Shown here in pieces: positions 4,874 to 41,744 of a stretch of DNA of 64,000 nt (positions are counted from its first letter, which is position 1; each line of letters opens with the position of its first letter). The stretch covers positions 7,495 through 71,494 of the forward strand of contig DATKDI010000081.1 in the NCBI GenBank assembly GCA_035512775.1. Direction: 5' to 3'. The notes below the pieces were generated by a model that was not told the DNA's origin, ran no database searches, and was given only the letters and a program-made list of their open reading frames with translations. The stretch is from Actinomycetota bacterium (GTDB taxonomy: Bacteria; Actinomycetota; UBA4738; HRBIN12). Both the position numbers and the translations under genes were made by a program.

Positions 4874-5185
4874 ATGGCGGAATACGTGTCGGTCGGGGAT
4901 TCCGACGAGGTGCCGGACGGAGAGGCGAAGGCGTTCGACGTGAGCGGCGCCGAGATCGCCGTCGCTCGGGTCGAGGGTCAGCTCTACGCGTTCAGCGACA
5001 TCTGCACACACCGACACTGCAACCTCGCCAACGGCGGCGAGATCGACGGCACCACCATCGAGTGCGAGTGTCACGGGAGCCAGTTCGACATGAAGACGGG
5101 AGAGGTCCTCAACCCACCCGCCACCGAGCCGCTCGAGACCTACGAGGTCCGCGAGGTCGACGGGATCATCCAGGTCGGTGCCTGA
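4874..5185 (+). CDS. Rieske [2Fe-2S] ferredoxin
   Basis: CTH...CECHGSQF Rieske ligands in a 103-aa acidic protein; SD GAGGAG upstream. Confidence 0.93.
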   Translation: MAEYVSVGDSDEVPDGEAKAFDVSGAEIAVARVEGQLYAFSDICTHRHCNLANGGEIDGTTIECECHGSQFDMKTGEVLNPPATEPLETYEVREVDGIIQVGA

Positions 5186-26337: not shown

Positions 26338-27417
26338 ATGCGGAACCCGTTCGCACGTGCCCTTACCCTCACGATCCTCACCGCTGTCATGCTCACCGGC
26401 GCGGCCGGGAGCGCCCTCGCCTGCGGCGGACTGGTCACGCCCAACGGCACGATCAACCTGCTGAAGACGACGACGCTCGCGGCCTATCACGAGGGCATCG
26501 AGCATTACGTCACCTCGTTCGAGTTCGCCGGCGAGGGCCAGGAGGTCGGGTCGATCATCCCGCTCCCGGGCGTGCCCACGGACGTGATCAAGGGCGGTGA
26601 CTGGACGCTCCAGCGCCTGATCATCGAGACCCAGCCGCAGCCGGAGGAGGGGCTCTTCCGAGCGGCCGGAGCTGCAGTCGCCAGCGACAGCGCGGAGGTC
26701 CTCCTCGAGAAGAAGATCGACGCCCTCGACATCACCGTGCTGAAGGGCGGTGCCGTCGAGGTCGGCAACTGGGCGCGCGAGCACGGGTACTTCCTGCCAC
26801 CCGACGCGCCGGAGATGCTCGCCTTCTACGCGGACCGCAGCCCGATCTTCCTCGCCGCTCGGTTCAACGCGGAGCGCGCTGCCAACCGCGGCGTGCAGAC
26901 CGGGCAGGGAACGCCCATCCACGTCGTGATCCCGACGCCCAACCCGTGGGTGCCGCTGCGGATCCTGGCGCTCGGCCGCAAGGCCGCGGAGGTCGTGCAG
27001 GCGGACGTGTACCTGCTCACCGACCGGCGGCCGGAGACACTTCCCCAGGCCGAGAGCTCGAAGGGGTTCGATCCGAACCAGCGCGGATTGATCCAGGAGG
27101 TCAGCGAGCCGGCCTCGGCCACCCTCCTGGCCGATCTTCGGTCCGATCGCGGGATGAAGTGGCTGCCGGAGAACGGCATGTGGCTGACCTACATCCGGAT
27201 CAACGAGACGGCGGCGAACCTGAAGCACGACCTCGCGATCGACGCGAGCGGCTACGGGCGGCCGAACCCCGTCGCGGCCGGATACCCCACCGCATCGGGC
27301 GCGGCCCCGTGGCCGATCGTCTGGACCGTGATGGCGGCGCTCGTCGCGGTCGCGTTCCTGATGGTCGTCACCGATCCCGCGGTCAGGCGCCAAGCGACTC
27401 GGGTCTTCCGGCGGTGA
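26338..27417 (+). CDS. Exported DUF2330-like protein (signal peptide, C-terminal TM anchor)
   Basis: Signal peptide ending ALA-CG; IIPLPGVP, ITVLKGGA.EV..W...GY pattern; hydrophobic C-terminus. Confidence 0.7.
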   Translation: MRNPFARALTLTILTAVMLTGAAGSALACGGLVTPNGTINLLKTTTLAAYHEGIEHYVTSFEFAGEGQEVGSIIPLPGVPTDVIKGGDWTLQRLIIETQPQPEEGLFRAAGAAVASDSAEVLLEKKIDALDITVLKGGAVEVGNWAREHGYFLPPDAPEMLAFYADRSPIFLAARFNAERAANRGVQTGQGTPIHVVIPTPNPWVPLRILALGRKAAEVVQADVYLLTDRRPETLPQAESSKGFDPNQRGLIQEVSEPASATLLADLRSDRGMKWLPENGMWLTYIRINETAANLKHDLAIDASGYGRPNPVAAGYPTASGAAPWPIVWTVMAALVAVAFLMVVTDPAVRRQATRVFRR

Positions 27418-27830
27418 AGCTGCGGGCGGCGGCGACCGCGGTGGCGCTGGTGCTCCTTATCGGGGCGGCAGCGGCATCCCGCGGCGCCGCCGCTCGCGCC
27501 AACGACGGCACGGTCCGCATCACGATCCACTACTCCAAGTTCGAACCGGCCGGTCTCGCCGTCGAGCCCGGCGAGACCGTCCGCTTCGTGATCGTGAACA
27601 CGGATCCGATCGACCACGAGTTCATCCTCGGCGACGAGGAAGTACAGCGTGTCCACGAGGATGGGACGGAAGCGCACCACGCGCCGCGCCCCGGAGAGGT
27701 GTCCGTCCCGGCGGGGGAGACCGTGGTGACGACCTACACGTTCCCAGAGGCCTCCGGCGAGCTGATCTTCGGCTGCCACCTCCCCGGCCACTACGACTTC
27801 GGCATGCGCGGCACCGTCACCGTCGCTTGA
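27414..27830 (+). CDS. Secreted cupredoxin (type 1 copper protein)
   Basis: Signal peptide; DHEF His and CHLPGHYDFGM (Cys-His-Met) ligands; GTG overlaps the upstream stop. Confidence 0.88.
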   Translation: MKLRAAATAVALVLLIGAAAASRGAAARANDGTVRITIHYSKFEPAGLAVEPGETVRFVIVNTDPIDHEFILGDEEVQRVHEDGTEAHHAPRPGEVSVPAGETVVTTYTFPEASGELIFGCHLPGHYDFGMRGTVTVA

Positions 27831-27866
27831 CCCTACGAAGTCCGCTCTCGCATATCGATCACGGGG

Positions 27867-28423
27867 TTACGTGGCCCTGAGCAGCGAGAGGGTGGATTCG
27901 GCGTCCGTCGAACCGATGACCTCCGCCATCCTGGCGTTATAGGCGCTGCCGAGCCGATCCCGGAGGAGCGCTTCGCCTTCGCTCATGCGCCTCCCGTCGA
28001 GGCGATGGTCGCCATCCGAGTCGCGGGCGATGACGTACGACACCATCTCGCGTTCGAGTCCCGTCGAGCTGAGGGCAAGGTAGACGGAGTCACCGTCGGC
28101 CAGCGCTTCCTCCATCCCTGCGATGAACCAGGAATGGACCGCGATCGTCTCTCCGTGGCGAGGTCCTTCTGAACGATCCGTGCGAACCTCGATCACCTCG
28201 AGGTCGGCGTCAACCGTTCTATCGCCGTCCGGAAGCGTCGTGCGCGATGCCACTCGGAGCCAGCGCTCCGCTGAGGCGACCATGTTGTCGACGCCCGGAC
28301 CGTCGTCCCCGCATGGCTCTCCACAGCTCGGCATGGTCAGCATGCAAGGAGCGTCGCGGTCGCGCCGATCCCAGCGAACGTACGAGGACGGCGGACCCAG
28401 TGAGCACCCCGAGGCGTCGTCAT
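27867..28423 (-). pseudogene. Probable lipoprotein split by a frameshift near 28340
   Basis: SD GGGAGG then ATG 28423 gives MTTPRGAHWVRRPRTFAGIGATATLLAC-stop. The adjacent frame continues MLTMPSCGEPCGDDG... to 27867; joined, they give a signal peptide with a lipobox-like PSC. Confidence 0.5.
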
Positions 28424-28473: not shown

Positions 28474-28516
28474 TTGACATCCTCTCGGCAGGGTTCATAC
28501 CGTTCGGGTACGAACG
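28474..28516 (+). promoter_or_regulatory. Sigma-A-like promoter TTGACA-N18-TACCGT with overlapping inverted repeat CGTTCG-N4-CGAACG
   Basis: TTGACA at 28474-28479, TACCGT at 28498-28503, inverted repeat at 28501-28516, directly upstream of the ALDH operon. Confidence 0.55.
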
Positions 28517-28535: not shown

Positions 28536-30002
28536 CTGAACGAGCGCGTCGAGGTCGAGGGCGTCGAGGTCTCGACCGAGCATTGGATCGGCGGTGAGCG
28601 CGTCCCATCCGGCTCGACCTTCGCCGACATCTCGCCGATCGACGAACAGGCCATCGCCGAGGTCGCCCGAGGCGGCGCGGACGAGGCTTCGAAGGCAGCC
28701 GATGCCGCGAAAATGGGCTTCGAGGCCTGGGGTTCGATGGAGCCGAAGCAACGGGCCGAGATCCTCCACCGGGTCGGAGAGCTGATCGAGGAAAGAGCGG
28801 CCGACATCGCGAAGGTCGAGACGCGGGACAACGGCTCCCTCCTCCGCTCGATGACGAACTCGGTGATCCCGAGGGCCGGCTACAACTTCCACTACTTCGC
28901 CGATCATCTCGAGAAGCTCACGGTCGACGACTTCGATACCCGTGGTCACACGAACCACGTGAGCTGGAACCCGTCCGGCGTCGCCGTCGTGATCACGCCG
29001 TGGAACGCGCCATTGATGCTCGCGACCTGGCGGATCGCGCCGGCGCTCGCCGCCGGCGACGCCGTGATCGCGAAGCCCCCGGAGTGGGCGCCGCTGACCG
29101 CCTCGCTCCTGGCCGACATCACGAAAGACGCCGGGATGCCCGACGGCGCCTTCAACGTGGTGCAGGGGATCGGGGAGGAGGCCGGCGCCGCCCTGGTCGC
29201 GCATCCCGACGTGAACCGGGTCGCGTTCACGGGGTCGGTCCCCACCGGGAAGCTCGTCGCCGCGGCCGCCGGTGCGAACCTCACGCCCGTCTCGCTCGAG
29301 CTCGGCGGCAAGGCGCCGTTCCTGATCTTCGCCGACACCGATCTCGACGCCGCGGTGAAGCAAGCCGTGAACCAGTTCGACAATGCGGGCCAGGTCTGCC
29401 TCGCTGGCACCCGGCTTCTGGTCGAGGACGCGATCCATGACGAGTTCTTGCATCGGTTCACGGAGGCCGCCGCCGCGATCCGCCAGGGTGACCCTCGCGA
29501 GGACACCACCGACATCGGGCCGCAGATCACCCGGGAGCACTTCGACCGGGTCGACGGCTACGTGCAGCGCGCCAAGGCCGACGGCGTCGAGGTCGTGTTC
29601 GGCGGCGGGCCGAACGAGGAGCTCGGCGGCCTCTACTACCGGCCGACGCTGTTCCGCGAGCCGCCCCGCGACGCCGAGATCGTCCAACACGAGGTCTTCG
29701 GCCCCGTCCTCACGCTCCAACGCTTCTCCGGTGAGGACGAGGGCGTCGCATTGGCGAACGACACGACCTACGGCCTGTCGGCGATCGTCTACACAGGCGA
29801 CCCCGATCGCGCCGAGCGGGTCTCAGCGGCGCTCGTGGCCGGCACCGTGTGGGTGAACTCCTTCTATGTCCGTGATCTGCGAGCCCCTTTCGGCGGCTCA
29901 CGCAACAGCGGGATCGGCCGGGAGGGCGGCATCTGGAGCTTCGACTTCTACTCCGACGTGAAGAACGTCTGCATGGCCCCATGGACGCCAACGGAACACT
30001 GA
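28536..30002 (+). CDS. NAD-dependent aldehyde dehydrogenase (hydroxymuconate-semialdehyde DH/HpaE-like)
   Basis: ITPWNAP, FTGSVPTG, LELGGK, NAGQVC, EVFGPV, GREGG. The conserved N-terminus (HWIGGE..F..ISP) extends to a CTG at 28536 preceded by SD GGAGG. Confidence 0.92.
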   Translation: MNERVEVEGVEVSTEHWIGGERVPSGSTFADISPIDEQAIAEVARGGADEASKAADAAKMGFEAWGSMEPKQRAEILHRVGELIEERAADIAKVETRDNGSLLRSMTNSVIPRAGYNFHYFADHLEKLTVDDFDTRGHTNHVSWNPSGVAVVITPWNAPLMLATWRIAPALAAGDAVIAKPPEWAPLTASLLADITKDAGMPDGAFNVVQGIGEEAGAALVAHPDVNRVAFTGSVPTGKLVAAAAGANLTPVSLELGGKAPFLIFADTDLDAAVKQAVNQFDNAGQVCLAGTRLLVEDAIHDEFLHRFTEAAAAIRQGDPREDTTDIGPQITREHFDRVDGYVQRAKADGVEVVFGGGPNEELGGLYYRPTLFREPPRDAEIVQHEVFGPVLTLQRFSGEDEGVALANDTTYGLSAIVYTGDPDRAERVSAALVAGTVWVNSFYVRDLRAPFGGSRNSGIGREGGIWSFDFYSDVKNVCMAPWTPTEH

Positions 30003-30014
30003 GAGGAGCACGCG

Positions 30015-30914
30015 ATGGGTGAGATCGTCGGCGCGGGGATCGTCTCGCACGTCCCCACGATCATGTTGCCGGAGGAAGTGCGGCTGGAGATCAACGAGGG
30101 CAAGGAGATCACCCTCGTCCCCGGGCTGCAGCGGCTCCGGACCGAGGTGCTCGACCGAGTCCAGGCCGACACGTTCGTCTTGATGGACACCCACTGGGAG
30201 GTGACGTTCGAGCACATCATCACCGCGCACGAGAAGCGCGAGGGGATCTTCACCTCGCACGAGCTGCCGCGCGGGATGCGCCAGATCCCGTACGAGATGC
30301 CGGGCGACCCCGAGCTCGCGTTCGCCGTCTCGAAGGAGGCCGAGAACCGCGACGACACGTGGGTGCTCGCCTCCGACGACCCGTACCTGCCGATCTTCTA
30401 CGGGACCATCAACATCTGGTCCTACCTCAAGGACGGCCCGGAGAAGTGGGTGAGCGTCGGCATCAACCAGTGCGGGACCACGGAGGACTTCCTCCTCCTA
30501 GGGGAGCTGATCGGCGAGGCCGTGCTGTCGCTGGATCGGAAGGTCGTGCTCCTCGCTTCGGGCGGGCTGTCGCATCGCTTCCTGCCGTTCCGCGAGCTGC
30601 GGGGCCGCGAGAGCTCCGACCCGATGAAGAACATCATCACGCCCGAGGCTCGAGAGGCCGATCTGCACGTGCTCGACCTGCTCCAGAAGGGAGATCATGC
30701 GTCGCTGATCGATTGGGTGCCGGAGTACAAGAAGGTCGGACCGGAGGGCAAGTTCGGTCACTACCTGATCATGGCCGGCGCGCTCGGCGGTGCGGCGTGC
30801 ACGGCGCCGGGCGAGCTCTTCAGCGAGTACGAGGCCTCGGTCGGCACGGGCCAGGTCCACGTGTGGTTCGAACGGCCGGCGACCGGTTGGACCGGCTCGA
30901 CGACGGCGGCGTAG
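30015..30914 (+). CDS. Class III (LigB/HpaD/DODA-type) extradiol ring-cleavage dioxygenase
   Basis: SHVPT, DTHW, ASGGLSH, EGKFGHY metal/catalytic histidine pattern. Confidence 0.85.
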   Translation: MGEIVGAGIVSHVPTIMLPEEVRLEINEGKEITLVPGLQRLRTEVLDRVQADTFVLMDTHWEVTFEHIITAHEKREGIFTSHELPRGMRQIPYEMPGDPELAFAVSKEAENRDDTWVLASDDPYLPIFYGTINIWSYLKDGPEKWVSVGINQCGTTEDFLLLGELIGEAVLSLDRKVVLLASGGLSHRFLPFRELRGRESSDPMKNIITPEAREADLHVLDLLQKGDHASLIDWVPEYKKVGPEGKFGHYLIMAGALGGAACTAPGELFSEYEASVGTGQVHVWFERPATGWTGSTTAA

Positions 30915-30944
30915 GGTTCGCGAAGTCAACCGAAGGGGGCTTGC

Positions 30945-32441
30945 GTGGCAACCGAGATGGACAAGATGACCGGAGACACCGGATACGAGCGGCTGGGGAG
31001 GCGGCGGCTGAAGCTCGTGGACGTCGTCGCGCAGTCCGTCGGCCTGATCGGCCCCGTGTTCTCGGCGGCGTTCCTGATCCCGTTGATCGCGGGCTTCAAC
31101 TTCTCCGGCAACGGCGCAGGGATCGCCACTCCGTTCGCGGTGATCCTGGCCGCCATCGGAGTGCTCGCACTGGGATGGATCGTGGCGCAGTACGCGAAGC
31201 GCGTCCACGCGGCGGGGTCCCTCTACGACTACGTGACGATGGGCTTCGGTTCGCGTGTGGGCGGCTGGGCCGGGTGGATCTACTACGGAGGCACCCTCCT
31301 GCTCTCCTCGGCGATCGCCGTCCTGGTGGGCTGGTTCCTTCGCGACAACATCCTTCCCGCGTTCGAGATCGACCCGATTATGCCTTCGTGGGCATGGTCC
31401 CTGATCTACGTCGGCCTCGTCTTCCTGATCCTCGCGGCCGGCGTCCAGATCTCGACCCGCGTCCAGCTCCTGCTCGCGCTCGTCTCCGTGGTGGTCGTGC
31501 TCGGCTTCTTCATCAACGTGATCATCAACGCGCCGGAGAATAGCTTGAAGGCGTTCAACCCTGCGGAGGCGCCGAACTACACGGGGATCCTGTTCGGCGT
31601 GTTGTACGGCGTCTTGATCTTCGTCGGGTTCGAGACGGCGGCGAACCTCGCCGAAGAGGCAGAGCAGCCGAAGCGCGCGATCCCGAAGGCGGTGATGCTG
31701 TCGGTGGCGATCGTCTCCGTCTTCTACGTGATCGCCGCGTACGCGCAGGTCGCCGGGTTCGGGTTCGATCTCGCGGTCCTGACCTCTCCGGAGGTCGCCG
31801 CGGCGCCGTTGTTCGCGCTCGGGTCTCCCGATTCTGCCGGAGGCATGGGGGGCTCGTCGGACACGATGCTCAAGATCCTGCTCGTCGTCGTGTTACTGGA
31901 CGTGATGGCGGTGGGGCTGGGCGCGGCGACGGCAACCACCCGCGGGCTCTTCGCGCTAGCGCGCGACAGGAAGATCCCCGGGGTCATCGCCGCAACGACC
32001 AAGGGTGGCAATCCGGTCGCGGCCGCGCTCGTCGTGGCCGTCGTGTCCGCCGCGTGGGTCCTGTCGACGGTCGCGTTCGACTCGCTCTTCGCTAACGGCG
32101 CGTTGGAAGGCGTGCCGCACGAGCTGGGGGTGTTCCAGTGGATCTCGACGCTCGGAGCGTTCCTGATCATGTTCGTGTACGGGATCATGGCGCTGGGCGC
32201 CTTCGTCGGGCTGAGCGATCACCCGAACAAGGTCGCCCTCGTGATCTCCGGCCTGCTCGGCACAACCGTCGCCGTCGGTGCGATCTTCGGCGCGATCTAC
32301 AAGGTGGCACCACCGTTCGACGGCATCTGGGTCTGGGGTGTCATCTGGGCGGCGCTGGGTCTGCTCGTGACGCTCGCCGTGAGGGGACGCGAGCCGGCTC
32401 GCCAGGTGCTCACCGACCTCTCGACGGGGGAGGAGGGCTGA
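30945..32441 (+). CDS. APC family amino acid/amine permease
   Basis: AQSVGLIGP, AGSLYDY, FVGFETAANLAEE, RGLFALARD; about 12 TM. Confidence 0.92.
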   Translation: MATEMDKMTGDTGYERLGRRRLKLVDVVAQSVGLIGPVFSAAFLIPLIAGFNFSGNGAGIATPFAVILAAIGVLALGWIVAQYAKRVHAAGSLYDYVTMGFGSRVGGWAGWIYYGGTLLLSSAIAVLVGWFLRDNILPAFEIDPIMPSWAWSLIYVGLVFLILAAGVQISTRVQLLLALVSVVVVLGFFINVIINAPENSLKAFNPAEAPNYTGILFGVLYGVLIFVGFETAANLAEEAEQPKRAIPKAVMLSVAIVSVFYVIAAYAQVAGFGFDLAVLTSPEVAAAPLFALGSPDSAGGMGGSSDTMLKILLVVVLLDVMAVGLGAATATTRGLFALARDRKIPGVIAATTKGGNPVAAALVVAVVSAAWVLSTVAFDSLFANGALEGVPHELGVFQWISTLGAFLIMFVYGIMALGAFVGLSDHPNKVALVISGLLGTTVAVGAIFGAIYKVAPPFDGIWVWGVIWAALGLLVTLAVRGREPARQVLTDLSTGEEG

Positions 32442-32461
32442 GGGACTCGAGGACCGCAGGG

Positions 32462-33834
32462 ATGGACGACTCCGATCGGCCGCTGCGGCTCGACGCGCCT
32501 CGGGAGGAGGCGCTCGAGCATGCGGCGAAGCTCGTCGCCGAGGCATGGCGGAGCTTCGACCGCCCCCGGCCGGAGGAGCCACCGCTCGACGAGGGGCTCC
32601 GGGCGCTCCTGCAGGCCGGGCTCCCACAGGAGCCGGTGAGCGTCCACGAGGCGTTGGAGGACGCGGCTCGTGCGCTCGACGAGTCGATCGCCCAGCCGCG
32701 CCCCCGGTACTTCGCGTTCATCGGATCGTCCGGCCTCGAGATCGGGGCGCTCGGAGACCTGCTGGCGTCCACGTACGACATGAACCTCGCCGTGGACGCG
32801 CGTGCCGCCACGATGATCGAGCAGCAGGCGGTCGGGTGGGTAGGGGAATTCGTCGGCTATCCGGCGACGAACGGCGCCTTCACGAGCGGCGGCACGATCT
32901 CGAACATGACCGCGTTGGCGGCGGGCTCCGCGCCGCCGTGTACGCCTCGGCCGAGGTCCACTACTCGATCACCCGCGCCGTGGAGCTGCTCGGGATCGGG
33001 AGCGACCGGCTCCGCGACATCCCGATCGACGGCGAGCACCGGATGCGCCCGGAGCTGCTGGCCGAGTCGATCGACCGGGACGTGGCCGATGGCGTGACGG
33101 CGGTCGCGGTGATCGCGACCGCCGGAACCACGCTCACCGGCGCGATCGACCCGGTCGCGCAGATCGCCGACGTCTGCGAGGCACGCGGGATCTGGCTGCA
33201 CGTGGACGGCGCCTACGGGCTGCCCGCCGCATCGGTCGTGCCCGACCGATTCGCGGGCGTCGAGCGCGCCGACTCGATCAGCGTCGACGCGCACAAGTGG
33301 CTCTACGTCCCCAAGGCGTGCAGCCTGGCGCTCGTCCGAGAGCCCGGCGCGCTCTCGCAGGCGTTCGCGCACGAGCAGGGTTACCTTCCGCATCAGCAAC
33401 ACGAGCTGCACGCGGCCGACATCACCCTGGAGTACTCGCGTCCGCTCCGGGCGCTGAAGCTCTGGCTCGCGTTCCGTGCGCACGGTGCCGAGCAGTTCCG
33501 GGAAGCGATCCGCCGGAACCTCGCGGAGGCACAGCTCCTGCATCGGGCCGCTTCGGATCGACCGAGCTTCGAGACGTTCGACGCCCCTCCGCATCTATCG
33601 ATCGTGCCGCTCAGGCACACCCCGAAGGGAGTGGATGACCTCGACGCCCACAACCAGTCCCTCGCCGAGGCGATCCAGGCCGACGGCCGCGTCTATCTCG
33701 CCTCGGCGCTGATCGAGGGGAAAGTCTGGCTCCGTCCGTGCTTCGTGAACTACCGCACCACCGACGACGACGTGATCGCGATCCTCGACGTCGCCGACGA
33801 ACTTGGGGAAAGGATCGCGAAGGGGTCTTCGTGA
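32462..33834 (+). pseudogene. Group II PLP-dependent (aromatic amino acid-type) decarboxylase, frameshifted at ~32925
   Basis: N-half (PRYFAFIG, FTSGGTISNMTAL) in one frame; C-half (SAEVHYS, WLHVDGAYG, DAHKWL, LRPCFVN) in another. Confidence 0.85.
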
Positions 33835-34328
33835 GCGCCGACGGCCTGCTGCCCGCCGAACGCAAGATCGTGGAGGAGCTCGGACACCTTCCGCTCGACT
33901 TCCGAGCGATGTGGGCCATCTCCAACGTCTTCCGGAGCGGCGCCGCGATCAGACGTCACCTCGAGTCCACCGTGCTCGCCGCCGATCGACTGTCATGGAC
34001 CGCCTTCACCGCACTCTGGGTGCTCTGGATCTGGGGCGAGATGGAGGCTCGCGACTTCGCGGCCGCGGTCGGGATCAGCCGCCCGACCGCGAGCGGGGTT
34101 CTCACCACGTTGCAGGGCCGACGCTACGTGAGGCGCCGGAAGGCATCGAAGGACGGTCGGGTGGTCCTCGTCTCGCTGACCCCGAGCGGCCGGAAGAAGA
34201 TCGAGGCGCTGTTCCCGCGGTTCAACGCCGAGGAGGCTCGGGTCGCCTCTGTCCTGGCCGAGGAGGAGCAGGAACGGTTCGCCGAGATGCTTCGCACGCT
34301 CCTCCGCGGCGTCGACGCGGGGCGCTGA
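33831..34328 (+). CDS. MarR family transcriptional regulator
   Basis: ISRPTASGVLTTL...DGRVVLVSLTPSG winged helix; GTG overlaps the decarboxylase stop. Confidence 0.92.
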   Translation: MSADGLLPAERKIVEELGHLPLDFRAMWAISNVFRSGAAIRRHLESTVLAADRLSWTAFTALWVLWIWGEMEARDFAAAVGISRPTASGVLTTLQGRRYVRRRKASKDGRVVLVSLTPSGRKKIEALFPRFNAEEARVASVLAEEEQERFAEMLRTLLRGVDAGR

Positions 34329-34333
34329 TCGCC

Positions 34334-35581
34334 CTAGACGGTCCGGACCCGGACAGGCATCCGCTTGATCCCGTTGACGAAATCCGACCGGATCCGCTCG
34401 ACCGGCCCCGCGAGCTCGATCGAATTCAGGCGCGGGAGGAGCTCCTGGAAGAGGATCTTCGTCTCCAGCCGGGCGAGGTGTGCCCCCAGACAGAAGTGCG
34501 GGCCACCCGGGCCGAACGTCACGTGGTCGTTCGGCGTCCTCGTGACGTCGAACGTGTAGGGGTCGGGGAAGACTTCCTCGTCGCGGTTGGCGCTCGTGAA
34601 CCAGGTGACGACCTTGTCGCCCCGCTGGATCTTCGCGCCACGGAGCTCGAGGTCGCGAGTGGCCGTCCGGCGGAAGTGGTGCACGGGCGTCGCCCATCGG
34701 AGGATCTCCTCGGTCGCGCGCGGGATCCGCTCGGGGTCTTCCTGCAAGAGCTTCAGCTGCTCCGGATGCTCCATCAGCGCGAGCATCCCGTGGCTGATCG
34801 TGTGCCGCGTCGTCTCGTTGCCCGCGATCATCAGCACCCCGAAGTAGTTGTGGAACTCCTGCTCGTTCAGGACGCCCTCCGACTGTGCGACCGTGAGGGC
34901 GTTGATCACGTCGTCCTGCGGATCCTTCAGGCGCAGGTCGCGCTGACCGTCGGCGTAGTCGAACACCTCGTAGGCGGCCGGGGAGCGGAACGGCAGGAGC
35001 CGGTAGGCCTCGGTGTCCACTCGGTCGACCACTGCCCGGGAGAGGTCGGGGTCCTGGTTCGCGATCATCTGGTCGCCCCAGGAGATCAGTTGCGGCGCGT
35101 CCTCTTGCGGGACCGTGAAGATCGAGCAGAGGAACCGGATCGGCAGGTCTCGGCTGATCTCGGGCACGAAGTCGAACTCGCCCGTGGGGAGCGCCTTGTC
35201 CAAGACGTCGCTCGCGACCTCGCGGATCCAGTCCTCGTACTTGCCGACCCCGCGCGCGGAGAAGCGGCTGGAGCAGATCCGTCGGAGCTGGGTGTGCCGG
35301 GGAGGGTCGGTCTCGAGCATCGACTTCCTGATCTCGAGCTGCTCGTCGTCGAGCTCCTCGAGTGCGACCGCGCCGAGCTCCGAGGAATAGGTCTGCCAGT
35401 CCATGTGGATCGCGGTGAGGTCGTCGTAGCGGGTGACCGCCCAGAAGCCCTTGTTGGGCGGGCGTTCCGGATGCCAGAAGACCGGGTGCTCGTGGCGGAG
35501 GTGATCGAACCAGTCGTAGGGAACGCCCTCGACGTAGTTGTCGGGGTTCGCGAGATCGATCTCGGGGTGTTCCTCGGCCAT
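34334..35581 (-). CDS. Cytochrome P450 (CYP124/125-like appearance)
   Basis: DPPRHT, I-helix AGNETT, EEILR (ExxR), FGPGGPHFCLG heme motif. Start at 35581 lies 7 nt after TATGAT. Confidence 0.95.
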   Translation of the reverse strand: MAEEHPEIDLANPDNYVEGVPYDWFDHLRHEHPVFWHPERPPNKGFWAVTRYDDLTAIHMDWQTYSSELGAVALEELDDEQLEIRKSMLETDPPRHTQLRRICSSRFSARGVGKYEDWIREVASDVLDKALPTGEFDFVPEISRDLPIRFLCSIFTVPQEDAPQLISWGDQMIANQDPDLSRAVVDRVDTEAYRLLPFRSPAAYEVFDYADGQRDLRLKDPQDDVINALTVAQSEGVLNEQEFHNYFGVLMIAGNETTRHTISHGMLALMEHPEQLKLLQEDPERIPRATEEILRWATPVHHFRRTATRDLELRGAKIQRGDKVVTWFTSANRDEEVFPDPYTFDVTRTPNDHVTFGPGGPHFCLGAHLARLETKILFQELLPRLNSIELAGPVERIRSDFVNGIKRMPVRVRTV

Positions 35582-35588
35582 CGAGCGA

Positions 35589-35594
35589 ATCATA
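35589..35594 (-). promoter_or_regulatory. -10 hexamer TATGAT of a probable leaderless P450 transcript
   Basis: Near-consensus -10, 7 nt before ATG, no SD. Confidence 0.6.
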
Positions 35595-35600
35595 CGGGCA

Positions 35601-36905
35601 CTAGAAATACGGGAGGTAGTACTCGAGCTCCCAGGGCGTGACCTCGGTGTCGGACGTCTCGCCCGCAGCCTCGTAGCGATCCCACTCCGCGCGCTTGAGG
35701 GCGACGAACGACTCCACGAGCCATTCGCCCATCGCGCCGACGAGCTTGGTGTCCGACTGGAGCTCGTCCAGCGCGTCGGAGAGCGTGTTGGCGACCGCCA
35801 CGTCGGTGTTGGGTTCGGCTCCGGGCTCCTGCCGGGGGCCGAGCTCCAACTCTTCCGTGACGCCGATCCGGGCCGCGTGGAGCAGCGCGGCACCGGCCAG
35901 ATAGGGGTTGGCAGCGGCGTCGGCCATCCGGTGCTCGATGCGCGAGCCCTCTCCCCGTGCCGACGGGACGCGGATGCCCACGGTCCGGTCGTCGAGTCCC
36001 CAGTTGGCGAGGTAGCCGTTCAACATGTCGGGCTTCAGACGCTTGTAGGCGTTGACGGTGGGGGCGCAGATCGCCGCCATGCCACGGTGGTGTGCGAGCA
36101 GGCCCGCGATCGACCTTCGGGCGAGCTCGGACAGTCCGTCGGGATCGTCGGGATCGTGGAACGCATTCGACCCGTCGCGACGGCGGAACGAGAGGTTCAT
36201 ATGCATGCCGCACCCGCCGCGATCGTTGAACGGCCTGCCCAGGAACGTGGCGTGCTTGCCGTGCCGGGCGGCGATCTCACGTACGAGCACGCGGAACAGG
36301 AACGCCTCGTCGGCGGCCGCGATCCCGTCCCGGTAGCGCCAGTTCACCTCGTAGGCCGCCGAGTCGAACTCGCTGCACCAGCTCTCCACGTGGAAGCCCG
36401 AAGCGAGCGAGGCCGTGACCATGTCGTGGATGGCGCCACTCGGGTCCACCGACATCCCGGTGCCGTAGACGCGGTGCGAGGGCAGCTCGGCCGGGACCCA
36501 CGCGCCGTCCTCGGCCTGCTCGCACAGATAGAACTCCAGCTCGAACGCCAGCTGCGGCTCCAGGCCCATGTCGCGCCATGCCTGGATCGCCTGCTTCAGG
36601 ACCTGCCGCGGGTCGAGCTCCAGCGGGCGGCCGTGCTGCGCCACGTCGGCGATCCCGACCATGGTGTCGTCCTCCCAGCCCGGTCGAAGGGTGTCGCGGT
36701 CCAGCTGGGCCTCGACGTCGGGGAGTCCGATATCGAACTGCTGTCGCGGGATCGGCAGGATCTCCCGGTCCGTGGTGAGCGGGTAGAGCCCGATGCAGAA
36801 CGCCGCGTGGCCGGCCTCCGCGACGTCGCCGAACAGGTACTTCCCGCGCTCGAGCCCGAGGATGTCCGGGATGAGCAATCGCAGCCGCCTACCGCTCAGG
36901 TCCAT
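35601..36905 (-). CDS. Glutamine synthetase-like gamma-glutamyl-amine ligase (PuuA/GlnA3-4 type)
   Basis: DILGLERGK, FELEFY, E...YEVN, GCGMHMNLS, NRT-like DRTVGIR, RIEHRMADAAANPYL. GS family but not canonical GlnA. Confidence 0.85.
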   Translation of the reverse strand: MDLSGRRLRLLIPDILGLERGKYLFGDVAEAGHAAFCIGLYPLTTDREILPIPRQQFDIGLPDVEAQLDRDTLRPGWEDDTMVGIADVAQHGRPLELDPRQVLKQAIQAWRDMGLEPQLAFELEFYLCEQAEDGAWVPAELPSHRVYGTGMSVDPSGAIHDMVTASLASGFHVESWCSEFDSAAYEVNWRYRDGIAAADEAFLFRVLVREIAARHGKHATFLGRPFNDRGGCGMHMNLSFRRRDGSNAFHDPDDPDGLSELARRSIAGLLAHHRGMAAICAPTVNAYKRLKPDMLNGYLANWGLDDRTVGIRVPSARGEGSRIEHRMADAAANPYLAGAALLHAARIGVTEELELGPRQEPGAEPNTDVAVANTLSDALDELQSDTKLVGAMGEWLVESFVALKRAEWDRYEAAGETSDTEVTPWELEYYLPYF

Positions 36906-36989
36906 GTCCCGCCCTTCCTGTGGTGGCTCAGGGAAGGTATCTGATGCCGGACGGTTCCGCTCGGCTGGAGCGCCTACTGCCGAACCGCG

Positions 36990-37835
36990 TCAGCCCCGTT
37001 TCGGGGCCCTGACGCCGCGGAACTCCCAGTCCCCGCCGAACGCGGTCGAGATCACCTCTTCGGACTCCGAGGGCTTGGCACCGACGTCTTCGCGCACCGG
37101 CACGTCGCCTTCGACGATGAAGTTGCGAAGGACGCCGAGCCCTTCGACCTCGACCTCGACGACATCGCCCGGATCGACCGGGCGGGAGTTGGCGGGTGTT
37201 CCCGAGAGGATCACGTCGTTGGGCAGGAGCGTGATCGTGCGGGCGATGTCCGCCACCAGGTACCGCATGTCCCAGATCATCTCGTCCGTGTTCCCGTCCT
37301 GCTTCACGTCGCCGTTCACGCGTGTCCGGATCGCCTTGCCGTGGAAGTCCCAGTCCGTGACGAGGCCGGGGCCGAGCGGACAGAGGGTGTCCGAGCCCTT
37401 CACTCGAAGCATCGAGCCGGCGTCGGTGTCGCGGAAGTCGTGGAGCCCGTAGTCGTTGGCGACGGTGTAGCCGAGGATGTAATCGTCGACCTCGTCGGGG
37501 GCGATGTGCTTGCAGCGCTCGCCGATCACGATCGCGATCTCGCCCTCGTAGTTCAGGTACCGGCATCGCGGAGGACGAACGACCTCGCCGCCGTGCGCGT
37601 TGAGCGAGGTCGTGGGCTTGTGGAAGAACGTGGGCGCCGGGCCGAGTGCCGCCTGGAACTCCGCCCGGCGACTCTCGTAGTTGAGGTGGACGCAGATGAT
37701 CTTCGACGGCTGGACGGGCGGGAGGTGGGCGGGTTCGTCCATCGGGATGCGCCGGCCGTCCGGCGCGACCAGCTCCTCGTCCTCGCGCGTGACTGTGGTG
37801 GCCACCCCGTCCAGGAGGATCCGCCGCGTTTCCAT
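36990..37835 (-). CDS. Fumarylacetoacetate hydrolase family protein (HpaG-like)
   Basis: KIICVHLNY, FFHKP, YEGEIA, NDYGLHD, KGSDTLCPLGP, LSGTP. Confidence 0.92.
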   Translation of the reverse strand: METRRILLDGVATTVTREDEELVAPDGRRIPMDEPAHLPPVQPSKIICVHLNYESRRAEFQAALGPAPTFFHKPTTSLNAHGGEVVRPPRCRYLNYEGEIAIVIGERCKHIAPDEVDDYILGYTVANDYGLHDFRDTDAGSMLRVKGSDTLCPLGPGLVTDWDFHGKAIRTRVNGDVKQDGNTDEMIWDMRYLVADIARTITLLPNDVILSGTPANSRPVDPGDVVEVEVEGLGVLRNFIVEGDVPVREDVGAKPSESEEVISTAFGGDWEFRGVRAPKRG

Positions 37836-37842
37836 CCGGCGA

Positions 37843-37849
37843 TAGCCTA
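37843..37849. promoter_or_regulatory. Overlapping divergent -10 elements (TAGCCT on +, TAGGCT on -)
   Basis: 20-bp intergenic gap; the hexamers lie 7 nt (plus) and 8 nt (minus) upstream of the respective start codons; no SD on either side. Confidence 0.55.
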
Positions 37850-37855
37850 CGGCCC

Positions 37856-38764
37856 GTGGGATGGCTCGTCGGCACGCGGAACGGGCTGTTCGGGCAGGGC
37901 GGAGACCATTGGCTCGACGGTCGCGAGATCACGGCGTCGGTGCCCGACGCGGATGGGTGGTGGGCGCTGGCGGACGGCCGCGACGTGATCCGGTTCCAGG
38001 GTGGCGCCGTGGAGGCGATCGCATCGATCGAGGAGGAGCTGGGCCGGTGCATGCTTCCGGTGGATGGCGGCGTGCTCGTCGGCACGGCGAACGCCCGGAT
38101 TGCCTTCGCGCGTTCGGGGTCGATCGAGATGCTCACGTCGTTCGACGGTGCGAAGGGTCGCGACCGCTGGTACACGCCGTGGGGTGGTCCTCCCGACACC
38201 CGGTCGCTGTCTGCCGCTCCCGACGGCGCTCTGTTCGCCAACGTGCATGTCGGCGGGATCCTTCGCGCGCGTGACCCTCATGACACGTGGGAGCCGACCA
38301 TCGACATCGATGCCGACGTGCACCAGGTCCTCGCGGACCCGATCAGGGCGGGGCACGTCGTCGCGGCGACGGCCCTCGGGCTGGCCGAGTCCCTCGACGG
38401 TGGCGACACCTGGCGGTTCATCACCGACGGTCTCCACGCGGCGTACGCGCGAGCGGTGGCGCTGGACGGCGAGGAGCTGTTCTTGAGCGCATCCGTCGGG
38501 CCTCGAGGCGGCCGGGCGGCCGTCTACCGTCTTCCGCCCGGGGAGATGGCGTTCGTCAGATCCACCGGCGGCCTCCCGGATCGGTTCGGCCAGAACATCG
38601 ACAGCCACTGCCTCGCGGCCGGGGGCGGCACGGTCATATTCGGCGCCGAAGGCGGCAGGCTGTTCGTCTCCGAGGATGGCGGCGCGTCGTGGCGCGACGC
38701 AGGCACCACCTATCCGGAGATCACATGCGTCGCGGTGGCGGACTCCGAAGGACCTGGGCCGTAG
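37856..38764 (+). CDS. BNR/Asp-box beta-propeller protein (WD40/YCF48-like)
   Basis: Asp-boxes SLDGGDTW and SEDGGASW; RWYTPWGGPPDTRS. Confidence 0.75.
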   Translation: MGWLVGTRNGLFGQGGDHWLDGREITASVPDADGWWALADGRDVIRFQGGAVEAIASIEEELGRCMLPVDGGVLVGTANARIAFARSGSIEMLTSFDGAKGRDRWYTPWGGPPDTRSLSAAPDGALFANVHVGGILRARDPHDTWEPTIDIDADVHQVLADPIRAGHVVAATALGLAESLDGGDTWRFITDGLHAAYARAVALDGEELFLSASVGPRGGRAAVYRLPPGEMAFVRSTGGLPDRFGQNIDSHCLAAGGGTVIFGAEGGRLFVSEDGGASWRDAGTTYPEITCVAVADSEGPGP

Positions 38765-38775
38765 ACTCCGCGTCC

Positions 38776-39564
38776 GTGGCCGAGCTGAAGGGGTTCTTCC
38801 CGCCGCGTTCACCCGAAGGCAAGGCGTCGCTCGTGCCCGCGCCGCCCTGGCATTACTCGGGCGACGTCCTCACGATCGAATACCGGACGGATCCCGGTCG
38901 GGTCGCCGCGCTTCTTCCGCAAGGCGTCGAGCCGGCCGACGAGGATCCCGGAGCCGTCGCGGTCATCTGGGCGGACTGGCAGTCGTGCAGCGACTCGGGC
39001 GAGGAGCTGTTGGACCCCGTCCGCTCCCAGTACAAGGAATGCTTCGTCGTCGTCCGGTGCCGGTACGAGGGCGAGACGTACTCGCGCTGCGTCTACATCT
39101 GGGTCGACAAGGACTTCGCGCTCGCCCGCGGCTGGTACCAGGGCTATCCGAAGAAGCTCGGCTCGATCTGGATGACGCGTCCGGTGACCGTGGGGCGCGC
39201 CGGGCCTCGGCTCGGCGCCGGGGGAGCCTTCGGCGCCACGCTTGCGGCGAACGACCGGCGCCTCGCCGAAGCCCGCTTGACGCTGACCGGCGAGTCGGAG
39301 TCGGGTGGCTTCGTGAACGCCCTGCCGATGCTGCACTCCCGCTGGATGCCCTCGATCGAGAAGGACAGCGGGGATTCGATGGCCGAGCTCGTGACGATGG
39401 GGTCCCGCGACGTGGAGGTCGGCCCGGCCTACACCGGCGACGCCGAGATCCGGCTCTTCGAAGCGCCGCGGGAGGAGCTCGCCGCCTTGGAGCCCCGCGA
39501 GACGATCGCCGGCTACTGGCGTCAGGTCGGCGCGACCTTCGACGGCGGCACCAGGCTCGGCTAG
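38776..39564 (+). CDS. Acetoacetate decarboxylase superfamily protein
   Basis: PPPWHYSGD, YKECFV, IWVD.DFAL.RGW.QGYPKKLG (Schiff-base lysine); GTG 8 nt after TAGACT. Confidence 0.88.
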   Translation: MAELKGFFPPRSPEGKASLVPAPPWHYSGDVLTIEYRTDPGRVAALLPQGVEPADEDPGAVAVIWADWQSCSDSGEELLDPVRSQYKECFVVVRCRYEGETYSRCVYIWVDKDFALARGWYQGYPKKLGSIWMTRPVTVGRAGPRLGAGGAFGATLAANDRRLAEARLTLTGESESGGFVNALPMLHSRWMPSIEKDSGDSMAELVTMGSRDVEVGPAYTGDAEIRLFEAPREELAALEPRETIAGYWRQVGATFDGGTRLG

Positions 39565-40326
39565 ATGCGCCTCGTCCGATTCCGGCACGGCGATCGCATC
39601 GCGACCGGCGCGATCGAGCCGGGCTCCGACGACATCAAGATCCTCCGCGGCACGTTCTTCGAGGATCCTCTCCCGTCGGGCGAGACGGTCGCGCTCGGCG
39701 ATGTCCTTCTCCTCGCACCGGTGCTTCCTTCCAAGCTCGTCTGCGTGGGAAGGAACTACGTCGCGCACGCCGAGGAATGGGGTCTCACCGTGCCCGAGGA
39801 GCCGCTGCTGTTCCTCAAGCCCTCAACGGCGGTGATCGGGCCCGGCGATCCGATCAAGCTGCTCCCCATCAGCAAGCGGGTCGACTACGAGGGCGAGCTC
39901 GGGGTCGTGATCGGCCGTCTGGCCCGCGGTGTCCGCGCGGAGGACGCCTACAAGTTCATCCTCGGATATACATGCGGAAACGACGTCACGCTCCGGGACC
40001 TGCAGAAGACCGACGACCAGTGGGCGCGCGCGAAGGGCTTCGACGGGTCGGCGCCTCTCGGCCCCTGGATCGAGACCGACCTTGATCCGAACGATGTGAT
40101 CGTCCGCACGAGCCTGAACGGAGAGATCCGCCAGCAGGCATCGACCGCCGAGATGGTCTTCGGTGTGGCGACGCTGATCGAATACATCACGGTGTTCATG
40201 ACGCTGCTCCCCGGCGACGTGGTGCTCACGGGTACGCCGGAGGGCGTGGGCAAGCTCACCGACGGAGACGTCGTGGAGGTCGAGGTCGAGGGTGTCGGCG
40301 TGTTGCGGAACGAGGTGCGCGGGTGA
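39565..40326 (+). CDS. Fumarylacetoacetate hydrolase family protein (gltX-linked type)
   Basis: KLVCVGRNY, FLKP, DYEGEL, NDVTLRD, WARAKGFD, LTGTPEG. Confidence 0.93.
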   Translation: MRLVRFRHGDRIATGAIEPGSDDIKILRGTFFEDPLPSGETVALGDVLLLAPVLPSKLVCVGRNYVAHAEEWGLTVPEEPLLFLKPSTAVIGPGDPIKLLPISKRVDYEGELGVVIGRLARGVRAEDAYKFILGYTCGNDVTLRDLQKTDDQWARAKGFDGSAPLGPWIETDLDPNDVIVRTSLNGEIRQQASTAEMVFGVATLIEYITVFMTLLPGDVVLTGTPEGVGKLTDGDVVEVEVEGVGVLRNEVRG

Positions 40327-41744
40327 CGGTCCGATGCCGATTCGCACCCGCCCCCTCGGGGTCGATCCATGTGGGGAACGCGAGGAGCGCGCTGTTCTCG
40401 TGGCTCTTCGCCCGTCATCACGACGGTGTCTTCACCCTCCGGATCGAAGATACGGACGCGAGCCGCGTCACCGAAGAGGCCTCTCAAGGCGTGCTCGACG
40501 ATCTTCGCTGGCTCGGCCTCGATTGGGACGAGGGCCCCGATGTCGGCGGGCCGAACGGGCCGTACCGGCAATCCGAGCGACTGGACACCTACCGGCAGAT
40601 GTCCGAACGGCTTCTCGAGGCAGGCCATGCCTACCGGTGCTTCTGCACGCCGGAGGAGCTCGACGAGCGCCGGAAGGCGGCGCTCGCCCGGGGCGAGCCG
40701 CCCGGATACGACGGCCGCTGCCGGAACCTCACCGACGAGGAGCGCGCGGCGTTCGAATCGGAGGGCCGGTCGTTCGCGATCCGATTCCACATGCCCGAAC
40801 GGGAGTGGGTGATCGAGGATCTGGTGAAGGGCGAGGTCCGTTGGGGGCCTCGCGACCTCGGCGACTTCGTGATCGTGCGTTCGGACGGCACGCCCGTGTT
40901 CCTGCTGGCGGTCGCGGTCGACGACATGCTGATGGAGGTCACCCACGTGGTTCGAGGCGACGATCTCCTCGCGAGCGCGCCTCGCAACGCGGCGGTGATC
41001 GAGGCGCTCGGGGGGACGCCGCCCGCCTACGCGCATCTGCCGCAGGTGCTGGGCCCGGATTCCAAGCCGCTGTCGAAGCGCCACGGTGCGACGAGCGTCG
41101 CTGCTTTCCGGGAACAGGGATCCCTCCCGGAGGCGCTGGTGAACTACCTCGCGCTCCTCGGATGGGCGAAGGACGACCACACCACGTTCCTTTCTCGAGT
41201 CGAGCTGATCGAGGCCTTCGACTTGTCGCACGTCTCACGCAACCCTGCGGTCTTCGACACACAGAAGCTCGAGTGGATGAACAACCACTACATCCAGTCG
41301 TTGGATGAGGACGACCTCGCGGCCCGATGCGTCCCGTTCCTCACGTCGGAGGGTCTGTCCGTTGACCCCTTGCTGCTCCGCCGGGCCATCCCCATCATCC
41401 GGGAACGCATGAAGACCCTCACCGAGGCGCCCGTGCTGCTCCGCTTCCTGTTCACCGACGACGTCGTGCCGAACGAGAAGGCCTCGGCGCTGATCGCGAA
41501 GGCTCCTGAGGGATATCTCAAGGCGACGGCCGATGCGCTCGATGCCTTGGGGACATGGGATACCGAGCACATCCAGGCGGTTCTGGACGGACTGGCGTCG
41601 GAGGCGGGACTGAGCCGGACGAAGGGCTGGCAGCCTATCCGCGCCGCCGTGACGGCATCGAACGTGTCGCCGCCCCTGCCGGAGTCGCTCGCCCTGTTGG
41701 GCAAGGAGCGCACGGTGGCACGGCTCCGCGCCGCCGCCGCGTGA
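40323..41744 (+). CDS. gltX: Glutamate--tRNA ligase
   Basis: RFAPAPSG, HVGN (HIGH), RIEDTD, CFC..EL, KPLSKRHG (KMSKS). Confidence 0.97.
   Translation: MTVRCRFAPAPSGSIHVGNARSALFSWLFARHHDGVFTLRIEDTDASRVTEEASQGVLDDLRWLGLDWDEGPDVGGPNGPYRQSERLDTYRQMSERLLEAGHAYRCFCTPEELDERRKAALARGEPPGYDGRCRNLTDEERAAFESEGRSFAIRFHMPEREWVIEDLVKGEVRWGPRDLGDFVIVRSDGTPVFLLAVAVDDMLMEVTHVVRGDDLLASAPRNAAVIEALGGTPPAYAHLPQVLGPDSKPLSKRHGATSVAAFREQGSLPEALVNYLALLGWAKDDHTTFLSRVELIEAFDLSHVSRNPAVFDTQKLEWMNNHYIQSLDEDDLAARCVPFLTSEGLSVDPLLLRRAIPIIRERMKTLTEAPVLLRFLFTDDVVPNEKASALIAKAPEGYLKATADALDALGTWDTEHIQAVLDGLASEAGLSRTKGWQPIRAAVTASNVSPPLPESLALLGKERTVARLRAAAA

Follow-up and report, generated by a model that had tools for sequence, protein, structure and literature searches.

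The 64,000-nucleotide stretch of DNA analysed here (the window) comes from an uncultured Actinomycetota bacterium and holds a cluster in which genes for an amino acid permease, a decarboxylase, a glutamine synthetase (GS)-like ligase and a cytochrome P450 stand among genes for aromatic ring cleavage. In our judgement the region is, on balance, probably a single catabolic regulon, whose substrate would be an amine made from an aromatic amino acid. It is built from known kinds of parts in an undescribed combination. This reading rests on the family assignments of the genes, their linkage and co-occurrence in other genomes, a non-orthologous replacement of the dioxygenase and a shared operator; we infer the substrates and the order of the steps from these, and the functional claims are of that kind throughout. 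A preliminary description, drawn from the letters of the window, had pointed out the joining of amine-activation and ring-cleavage enzymes. The observation itself was confirmed and its interpretation was partly supported. All ten gene families that it named were found by Pfam and NCBIfam matches (the beta-propeller through Atlas propeller clusters), with small corrections to the coordinates.

The window is part of contig C81 of a metagenome-assembled genome (MAG, G000) of 2.56 Mb in 83 contigs, 93.5% complete and with a GC content of ~69%. The MAGs most closely related to it belong to uncultured Actinomycetota and come from soil and sediment. Genes were called by third-position GC and then checked with Pfam and NCBIfam, and structural neighbours are the best PDB sequence matches, given in bits. 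The genes form three transcription units. The first, on the plus strand, runs from an aldehyde dehydrogenase (ALDH) through a LigB dioxygenase, an APC-family permease and a decarboxylase to a MarR regulator. The second, FAH1-GS-P450 on the minus strand, is convergent with the first and divergent from the third, which holds a propeller protein, an ADC-superfamily enzyme, FAH2 and gltX on the plus strand.

Eighty loci anchored on orthologues of the GS-like ligase were collected from species-representative genomes, all of uncultured Actinomycetota, and 43 of these had full 10-kb flanks. Among the 43, the P450 was present in 42, FAH1 and the ADC-like gene in 40 each, the MarR gene in 35, the decarboxylase in 28 and LigB in 24. 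The neighbourhood is kept, with shuffled gene order, in at least eight families, and both halves of the cluster stand together in a rearranged order in L066, L071 and L086. At the level of whole genomes, an even sample of 401 Actinomycetota genomes (P450 counted at ≥45% identity) contained a LigB orthologue in 36 genomes besides the window's own; the ADC-like gene was found in 36/36 of these and the P450 in 34/36. Within the window's own family, LigB, ADC and P450 were all present in 19 of 22 genomes and all three were missing from the other 3. No conclusion here depends on the unpublished genome G082, which was among the genomes listed. The grouping is far beyond chance. The possibility raised in the preliminary description, that the genes would not co-occur elsewhere, therefore fails: by co-occurrence, conserved neighbourhoods and the shared operator, the amine-activation and ring-cleavage genes belong together.

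Another explanation is that two unrelated modules lie side by side, a small homoprotocatechuate meta-cleavage operon and an Ipu/Puu-like operon for gamma-glutamylation of an aliphatic amine. The substrate of the CYP125-like P450 would then be a methyl-branched amide, with a hydroxylation like that of isopropylamine catabolism. In 15 of the 43 full-flank loci, FAH, GS, P450 and ADC occur with no decarboxylase, LigB or ALDH within 10 kb. The halves lie 930 kb apart in one genome (G287), one beside pepN and one beside gltX, and both are kept. A further genome, G133, has a lower module on its own: its cluster (L132, G133:C64:27700-47699) comprises HpaB, a flavin reductase, LigB, two ALDHs, FAH1, MarR, the ADC-like gene and an AMP-binding ligase, while HpaH, HpaI, GS and P450 are all absent. 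The membership of the P450 in the CYP125/124 clan would suit this explanation as well. It nevertheless seems very improbable, given the genome-level co-occurrence and co-loss and the fact that the ADC-like and FAH genes travel both with GS-P450 and with the dioxygenase. It is also opposed by the makeup of the operon in families that lack LigB and by the operator that precedes units of both halves.

The LigB regions of seven other families hold ADC-like, FAH1, ALDH, GS-like, P450 and MarR genes, variously arranged. Two 9-Mb genomes have genes for a ferredoxin and a ferredoxin reductase between ADC and GS, and in one of the two a class-I amidotransferase-type hydrolase (GATase) stands beside a second ALDH; for the dioxygenase of one of these genomes (G054), identity to Streptomyces proteins reaches 91%. 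The Streptomyces versions of the cluster add a ferredoxin, a ferredoxin reductase and a GATase. Thirteen further genomes, from families f16 and f58, carry the ADC-like gene (~50%) and the P450 (~55%) and no LigB. Six of their loci (four f16 and two f58) were examined, and in all six the genes form one co-directional operon. The order in the four f16 loci is FAH, GATase, GS, P450, a gap, ADC, ALDH, a second gap, APC and decarboxylase; in the two f58 loci the genes are arranged differently and GATase is absent. Pfam scans of two loci, L138 and L139, identified the gene just 5' of ADC as a two-domain VOC-type extradiol dioxygenase, whose best family match is the type I HpaD; the second gap in L138 holds an ArgE/DapE-type M20 deacylase. 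Because an unrelated dioxygenase fold fills the same operon slot, these loci strongly indicate that the cleavage of a homoprotocatechuate-like catechol by an extradiol enzyme is integral to the route, and a dioxygenase placed between P450 and ADC inside one co-directional operon argues against two independent modules.

Distant relatives of the window (L035, L037, L040, L047, L059, L080 and others) have an extended cluster, which adds a class-I amidotransferase-type hydrolase, a MetE-like (Meth_synt_2) protein, a second P450, two SDRs, a second GS-like ligase and a luciferase-like monooxygenase. The extended cluster may serve further or modified substrates, for example methylated or non-hydroxylated amines.

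The palindrome CGTTCG-N4-CGAACG occurs ~20-40 nt 5' of the ALDH start in the window and in relatives. The operator-like copy in the window is CGTTCGGGTACGAACG (28501..28516), 20 nt 5' of that start. In 1.81 Mb of related loci the exact palindrome was counted 36 times, where base composition would predict 0.2, and 32 of the 36 lie within 160 nt 5' of a cluster gene: 21 before ALDH, 3 before GS, 3 before FAH1, 2 before ADC and 3 in the divergent spacer between ADC and FAH1. Copies with one mismatch provide further sites 5' of GS. Judging from its placement, the palindrome is probably bound by the MarR repressor of the cluster. Since the same operator stands before units of both halves, it appears likely that one regulator, presumably MarR, controls both. 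The MarR-family gene itself (33831..34328, plus strand; Pfam MarR) is weakly HpaR-like, its best NCBIfam match being HpaR at 49 bits against a cut-off of 121. Its GTG start overlaps the decarboxylase stop (a GTGA overlap), an arrangement of translational coupling.

The first gene of unit 1 encodes an HpaE-like ALDH, of the 5-carboxymethyl-2-hydroxymuconate semialdehyde dehydrogenase type (28536..30002, plus strand; Pfam Aldedh, 482 bits), for which the best NCBIfam match was HpaE with 527 bits against a cut-off of 638. No ATG, GTG or TTG is found in its frame 5' of 28713, and a CTG at 28536 lies 6 nt past GGAGG. At the homologous position the close clade also has CTG, six more distant relatives have ACG and two have TTG or GTG; whichever codon stands there, it is always preceded by a GGAGG-like site. 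Translation most likely begins at the CTG at 28536, and the non-canonical start may reflect low or regulated translation of the operon's first gene.

The class III extradiol dioxygenase that follows (30015..30914, plus strand; Pfam LigB) had a single NCBIfam match, TIGR02298 (HpaD_Fe), at 143 bits against a cut-off of 316, so that the equivalog score was not reached. Its best PDB match was the 3,4-dihydroxyphenylacetate 2,3-dioxygenase 8iq8 (E 4e-23), with aminophenol dioxygenases next, and the SHVP, DTHW, LSHRF and EG motifs align with 8iq8. No entry named DODA or YgiD was among its PDB matches. By these comparisons the LigB enzyme is distantly related to HpaD, the homoprotocatechuate 2,3-dioxygenase of the Fe type. 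The choice between HpaD and DODA that the preliminary description had posed thus falls to the former, since the LigB and the VOC types both match homoprotocatechuate 2,3-dioxygenases best.

Next come the APC-family amino acid/amine permease (30945..32441, plus strand; Pfam AA_permease and AA_permease_2), which had no specific NCBIfam equivalog match, and a group II pyridoxal phosphate (PLP)-dependent decarboxylase with an interrupted frame (32462..33834, plus strand; Pfam Pyridoxal_deC). Compared with its counterparts in relatives, the decarboxylase gene lacks 46 nt at 32919-32924, in a gap with CGGCGG on its flanks, and its frame is broken there. Both independent Logan contigs of the probable source run end exactly at this junction, and three other runs contain the missing 40 letters. 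For these two reasons the frameshift is probably an assembly artefact (a mis-join), and a pseudogene is the less likely explanation. The intact orthologue L009:13629-15047 (472 aa) had the DOPA and tryptophan decarboxylases 7xin and 4obu as its best PDB matches and keeps the PLP lysine (HKW) and the stacking histidine (EVHYS). The best-matching class for the decarboxylase is therefore the aromatic amino acid type, as a candidate activity, in line with the aromatic amino acid decarboxylation proposed in the preliminary description.

In unit 2, the GS-family ligase (35601..36905, minus strand) has the Pfam domain Gln-synt_C without Gln-synt_N. The best NCBIfam match was gamma-glutamylputrescine synthetase (248 bits, cut-off 650); against GlnA (TIGR00653) it scored 217 bits with a cut-off of 429, and so it was not scored as a true glutamine synthetase. 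Its PDB matches, to true GS and to amine ligases alike, are distant (136 bits for the GS-like entry 8wwu). We regard it as a candidate gamma-glutamyl-amine synthetase on these matches. The window genome has eight GS-family paralogues, the cluster ligase among them. One paralogue, on contig C74, adjoins an ALDH and a GATase homologue and resembles a Puu-like set.

The P450 gene (34334..35593, minus strand; Pfam p450) starts 7 nt past the stop of the GS-like ligase, and the two are translationally linked. It belongs to the CYP125/124/142 clan: its PDB matches were the reconstructed CYP125MRCA (427 bits), CYP125A1 (280) and CYP124 (258), and it holds the AGNETT and FGxGGPHFCLG motifs, together with 12 residues (192-203 of the query) that are inserted in comparison with CYP125. 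CYP125s are thus its closest solved P450s, and the gene context around it is not that of sterol catabolism. The closest characterised P450s are the CYP125/124/142 hydroxylases of sterols and methyl-branched lipids (PMC12100521). Given these nearest characterised relatives, hydroxylation of the ring by the P450 is a tentative suggestion. The preliminary description had named a steroid C26 oxidase as an outcome that would count against its reading; the clan agrees with this, yet sterol genes are absent from the cluster and the P450 is linked to the ligase, so that the evidence is divided.

Between GS and P450, 17 related loci, including most of the close relatives, carry a 558-bp SRPBCC (Polyketide_cyc2) gene of 164 aa (L009:11306-11863). 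It is absent at the corresponding junction of the window (35594-35600), and no homologue was found anywhere in the window genome. The gene-less junction also occurs in MAGs L010, L014 and L026. An assembly artefact was ruled out, as the junction in these three MAGs is identical, and the absence is read as a real polymorphism. The first gene of unit 2, FAH1 (36990..37835, minus strand; Pfam FAA_hydrolase), resembles the C-terminal domain of HpaG, the decarboxylase/isomerase of the homoprotocatechuate pathway (best NCBIfam match HpaG-C-term, 194 bits, cut-off 276), and its best PDB match was HpcE, 1gtt.

The ADC-superfamily enzyme of unit 3 (38776..39564, plus strand; Pfam ADC, 201 bits) is of the MppR/Sbi00515 type. 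Its best NCBIfam match was MppR (TIGR04460), with 228 bits against a cut-off of 380, and its PDB matches were MppR (4jm3, 204 bits) and Sbi00515 (4zbo, 187 bits). The Schiff-base lysine (PKK) aligns with K156 of MppR and K122 of Sbi00515, and the QY(K/R)E motif is kept. The MppP/MppQ partners (PLP oxidase/aminotransferase) were not found in the cluster. Orthology to Sbi00515 was considered and ruled out; the Streptomyces cluster copy reached only 156 bits. Sbi00515 is a pyruvate aldolase-dehydratase, which catalyses the condensation of pyruvate with an aldehyde, followed by dehydration.

In the G133 cluster the ADC-like gene occupies the place expected for HpaH and HpaI, and the window genome, at 93.5% completeness, had no HpcH/HpaI aldolase (PF03328). 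Because of this context, this absence and the fact that the step would be the reverse of the Sbi00515 reaction, the ADC-like enzyme is a candidate replacement for HpaH/HpaI as the hydratase-aldolase that would end meta-cleavage, the direction of the reaction being our reading of these comparisons. The preliminary description had offered both the ADC-like and the propeller protein for a missing oxidase or hydrolase step. For the former, replacement of HpaH/HpaI is more likely. The BNR/Sortilin-Vps10-type beta-propeller (37856..38764, plus strand) had no Pfam match and was assigned by Atlas propeller clusters, with a model pTM of 0.92. It occurred in 14 of the 80 related loci, all at ≥79% GS identity, and is therefore confined to the closest clade of the window, so that it is probably a clade-specific insert between FAH1 and ADC, not a step of the pathway.

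FAH2 (39565..40326, plus strand; Pfam FAA_hydrolase and Rv2993c-like_N) is Rv2993c-like, lies directly 3' of the ADC-like gene and overlaps the start of gltX (40323..41744, plus strand; Pfam tRNA-synt_1c). The FAH2-gltX pair is kept in most loci of the window's family, and FAH2 was not found in the clusters of other families. The pair looks like housekeeping synteny, and membership of FAH2 in the pathway is uncertain. Mycobacterium tuberculosis presumably has the same pairing of an FAH gene with a glutamyl-tRNA synthetase, Rv2993c-gltS.

On the other side of the cluster, the interval between pepN and unit 1 (26338-28334) holds an unrelated DUF2330 protein, a cupredoxin-like open reading frame (ORF, ~27480-27830) and a 155-aa ORF on the minus strand (27867-28334), for which a homologue was found in one of the 80 related loci (L009).

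Taken together, the genes suggest the following route. The APC permease would import the amino acid, most likely tyrosine or L-DOPA, and the PLP decarboxylase would convert it to the amine (tyramine or dopamine). The GS-like ligase would join the amine to the gamma-carboxyl of glutamate in an ATP-driven reaction, and the P450 would oxidise the gamma-glutamyl amide. The LigB dioxygenase, the HpaE-like ALDH and the HpaG-like FAH would carry out a homoprotocatechuate-type breakdown of the catechol ring. The ADC-fold enzyme, in place of HpaH/HpaI, would perform the last hydration and retro-aldol cleavage to pyruvate and an aldehyde, and MarR would repress the units through CGTTCG-N4-CGAACG.

Two orders of these steps fit the data. 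In the one that we rate slightly higher, though at less than even odds, the P450 would replace HpaBC by ring-hydroxylating gamma-glutamyl-tyramine, and the glutamyl tag would be a protecting group through ring fission, preventing cyclisation of the amine with the aldehyde formed there. Pyruvate and gamma-glutamyl-4-aminobutanal, a Puu intermediate, would result, and a PuuC-like ALDH with a gamma-glutamyl hydrolase (GATase or M20) would finish the route. Such finishing enzymes are found in the clusters of relatives, and there are candidates elsewhere in the window genome. This order is favoured by the conservation of the hydrolases, by the way in which HpaBC and P450 complement each other in their distribution, and by tyrosine being the more widely available substrate.

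In the other order, which we rate somewhat lower, the P450 would hydroxylate the carbon next to the amide nitrogen of gamma-glutamyl-dopamine, and the resulting carbinolamide would give 3,4-dihydroxyphenylacetaldehyde and glutamine. The ligase and the P450 would then amount to a de facto amine 'oxidase' that passes the nitrogen straight into glutamine, an ALDH would produce homoprotocatechuate, and an unmodified Hpa-type lower route would lead to pyruvate and succinic semialdehyde, with a GATase, where present, recycling glutamine to glutamate. The best matches of both dioxygenase folds, the ALDH, the FAH and the MarR protein to homoprotocatechuate families fit this chemistry, as does the lower module of G133, which stands behind HpaBC, whose product is homoprotocatechuate. 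The relatives of the P450 hydroxylate aliphatic C-H bonds, the cluster of the window's clade has no hydrolase, and the best structural relative of the decarboxylase is a DOPA decarboxylase. The PuuC-like second ALDH, also present in the GS-less G133 cluster, would suit an arylacetaldehyde dehydrogenase.

This second order would have to start from an existing catechol, L-DOPA or dopamine, since HpaB (PF03241) is missing from the window genome, which, with only two P450s in all, has one besides that of the cluster. By chemical reasoning the benzylic carbon would be the easier target for the P450, and GATase and M20 hydrolases are widely kept in relatives. We know of no example of such chemistry as a catabolic route for primary amines, which also counts against it. 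The second ALDH of the relatives was considered as a means of telling the two orders apart and was found uninformative, being PuuC-like in clusters both with and without a GS gene (G133 being one without).

Several observations weigh against a single regulon for aromatic amines, besides the 15 loci in which one half stands alone. The co-occurrence counts were drawn from related genomes, which are not independent samples. In the window the exact operator is found only 5' of ALDH, with no second copy near FAH1 or ADC; the FAH1-propeller spacer there measures only 20 nt. The nearest characterised relatives of the P450 place the hydroxyl on aliphatic methyl ends of sterols and lipids and not on aromatic rings. 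Each best NCBIfam match to a homoprotocatechuate or gamma-glutamyl-pathway family or to MppR lies below the equivalog cut-off, and because all the family matches do so, the enzymes may have substrates other than those of the Hpa and Puu paradigms. A gamma-glutamyl hydrolase, a ferredoxin and a ferredoxin reductase are all missing from the window cluster. Finally, a literature search found no published description of the route; the literature covers gamma-glutamylation of polyamines, ethanolamine, aniline and 1-naphthylamine, together with standard hpa work. The last result agrees with the view that the combination is not a named pathway.

The preliminary description had also noted that no amine oxidase or gamma-glutamyl hydrolase is visible, and the window cluster does contain neither; the window genome likewise had no copper amine oxidase and no homogentisate dioxygenase. 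It had concluded that the route is incomplete or uses novel steps; the hydrolase missing from the window cluster is present in the clusters of relatives, as a GATase or an M20 hydrolase. GATase homologues lie elsewhere in the window genome, on contigs C74 and C83, as do homologues of the ferredoxin reductase. No ferredoxin was found in the window genome with the query used. A ferredoxin-reductase-like gene at 5178-6437, ~28 kb from the P450, is 37% identical to the reductase of the Streptomyces cluster.

The hydrolases and the regulation also bear on whether the locus is biosynthetic, making a tyrosine- or DOPA-derived metabolite such as a gamma-glutamyl amide, a pyridine or a betalamic-acid-like extradiol product. 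A decarboxylase, a P450 and an extradiol dioxygenase do occur together in the routes to betalains and to the L-DOPA unit of lincomycin, and in betalain synthesis CYP76AD and a LigB-type DODA act in series. The cluster keeps a syntenic chromosomal site, and across the family the P450 (75-84% identity) and FAH1 (78-87%) are about equally conserved with GltX (69-75%), as might be expected of such a locus. The presence of importer-type APC permeases, of a local MarR or GntR repressor with an operator and of tag-removing hydrolases is at odds with biosynthesis. So is an FAH and an aldolase-type enzyme that would cut the carbon chain to central metabolites, as well as the same lower module serving the hpaBC catabolic cluster. 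There is no exporter, nonribosomal peptide synthetase, polyketide synthase or tailoring set. We consider a biosynthetic role very improbable and retain catabolism of an aromatic amine as the preferred reading.

Compared with known systems, the catabolic cluster shares with hpaGEDFHI and HpaR of E. coli an HpaD-like LigB, an HpaE-like ALDH, an HpaG-like FAH and a MarR regulator with a palindromic operator. Unlike that system, both cluster and window genome lack HpaBC, HpaF, HpaH and HpaI, and the upper part of the cluster consists of a decarboxylase, a GS-like ligase and a P450. With the E. coli Puu pathway (PuuP/A/B/C/D) it has in common a permease and a GS-family ligase and, in relatives, a PuuC-like ALDH and an amidotransferase-type hydrolase. 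It differs in having no PuuB-type oxidase, with a P450 and a ring-cleavage set instead, and in the missing hydrolase of the window cluster.

In the Ipu pathway for isopropylamine of Pseudomonas sp. KIE171 and the Pip pathway for piperidine, a GS-like ligase is followed by a P450 whose substrate is the gamma-glutamyl amide. A GS-like gene followed by a coupled P450 is the shared feature, to which the Streptomyces relatives add a ferredoxin, a reductase, a hydrolase and an ALDH; Ipu and Pip deal with small aliphatic or alicyclic amines and are not known to include a dioxygenase, FAH or ADC-fold enzyme. The ADC-like enzyme shares the Schiff-base lysine and QY(K/R)E with Sbi00515 and with MppR of enduracididine biosynthesis, and differs in its score below the cut-off and in the lack of MppP/MppQ. 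Unlike the setting of CYP125, CYP124 and CYP142, the cluster has no sterol-catabolic genes, and its P450 is coupled to a GS-like ligase. A GS-family ligase also opens aromatic amine degradation in the AtdA1/TdnQ system for aniline and in the NpaA1 system. There the ring nitrogen is removed by a Rieske dioxygenase, whereas here the decarboxylase implies an alkylamine side chain and a P450 takes the place of that enzyme. In 1-naphthylamine degradation, gamma-glutamylation of the arylamine by the GS-family enzyme NpaA1 precedes dioxygenation (PMC11335346).

If the proposed regulon is correct, it would join gamma-glutamyl tagging, P450 oxidation of the tagged amide and homoprotocatechuate-type meta-cleavage, a trio that has not been reported together, and an ADC-fold protein would be seen to replace the HpaH/HpaI hydratase-aldolase pair. 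Should the P450 act on the ring of gamma-glutamyl-tyramine, the cluster would represent a new catabolic logic in which an aromatic amine route feeds directly into the Puu/4-aminobutyrate (GABA) pathway, and it would give MppR/Sbi00515-like ADC-fold enzymes their first physiological role outside antibiotic biosynthesis. The claims are directly testable, because homologous clusters exist in cultivable Streptomyces. Tyramine- and dopamine-type compounds include plant allelochemicals and signalling molecules. Many soil Actinomycetota, from uncultured lineages with 2.5-Mb genomes to Streptomyces, would then consume amines derived from tyrosine or DOPA by an undescribed route.

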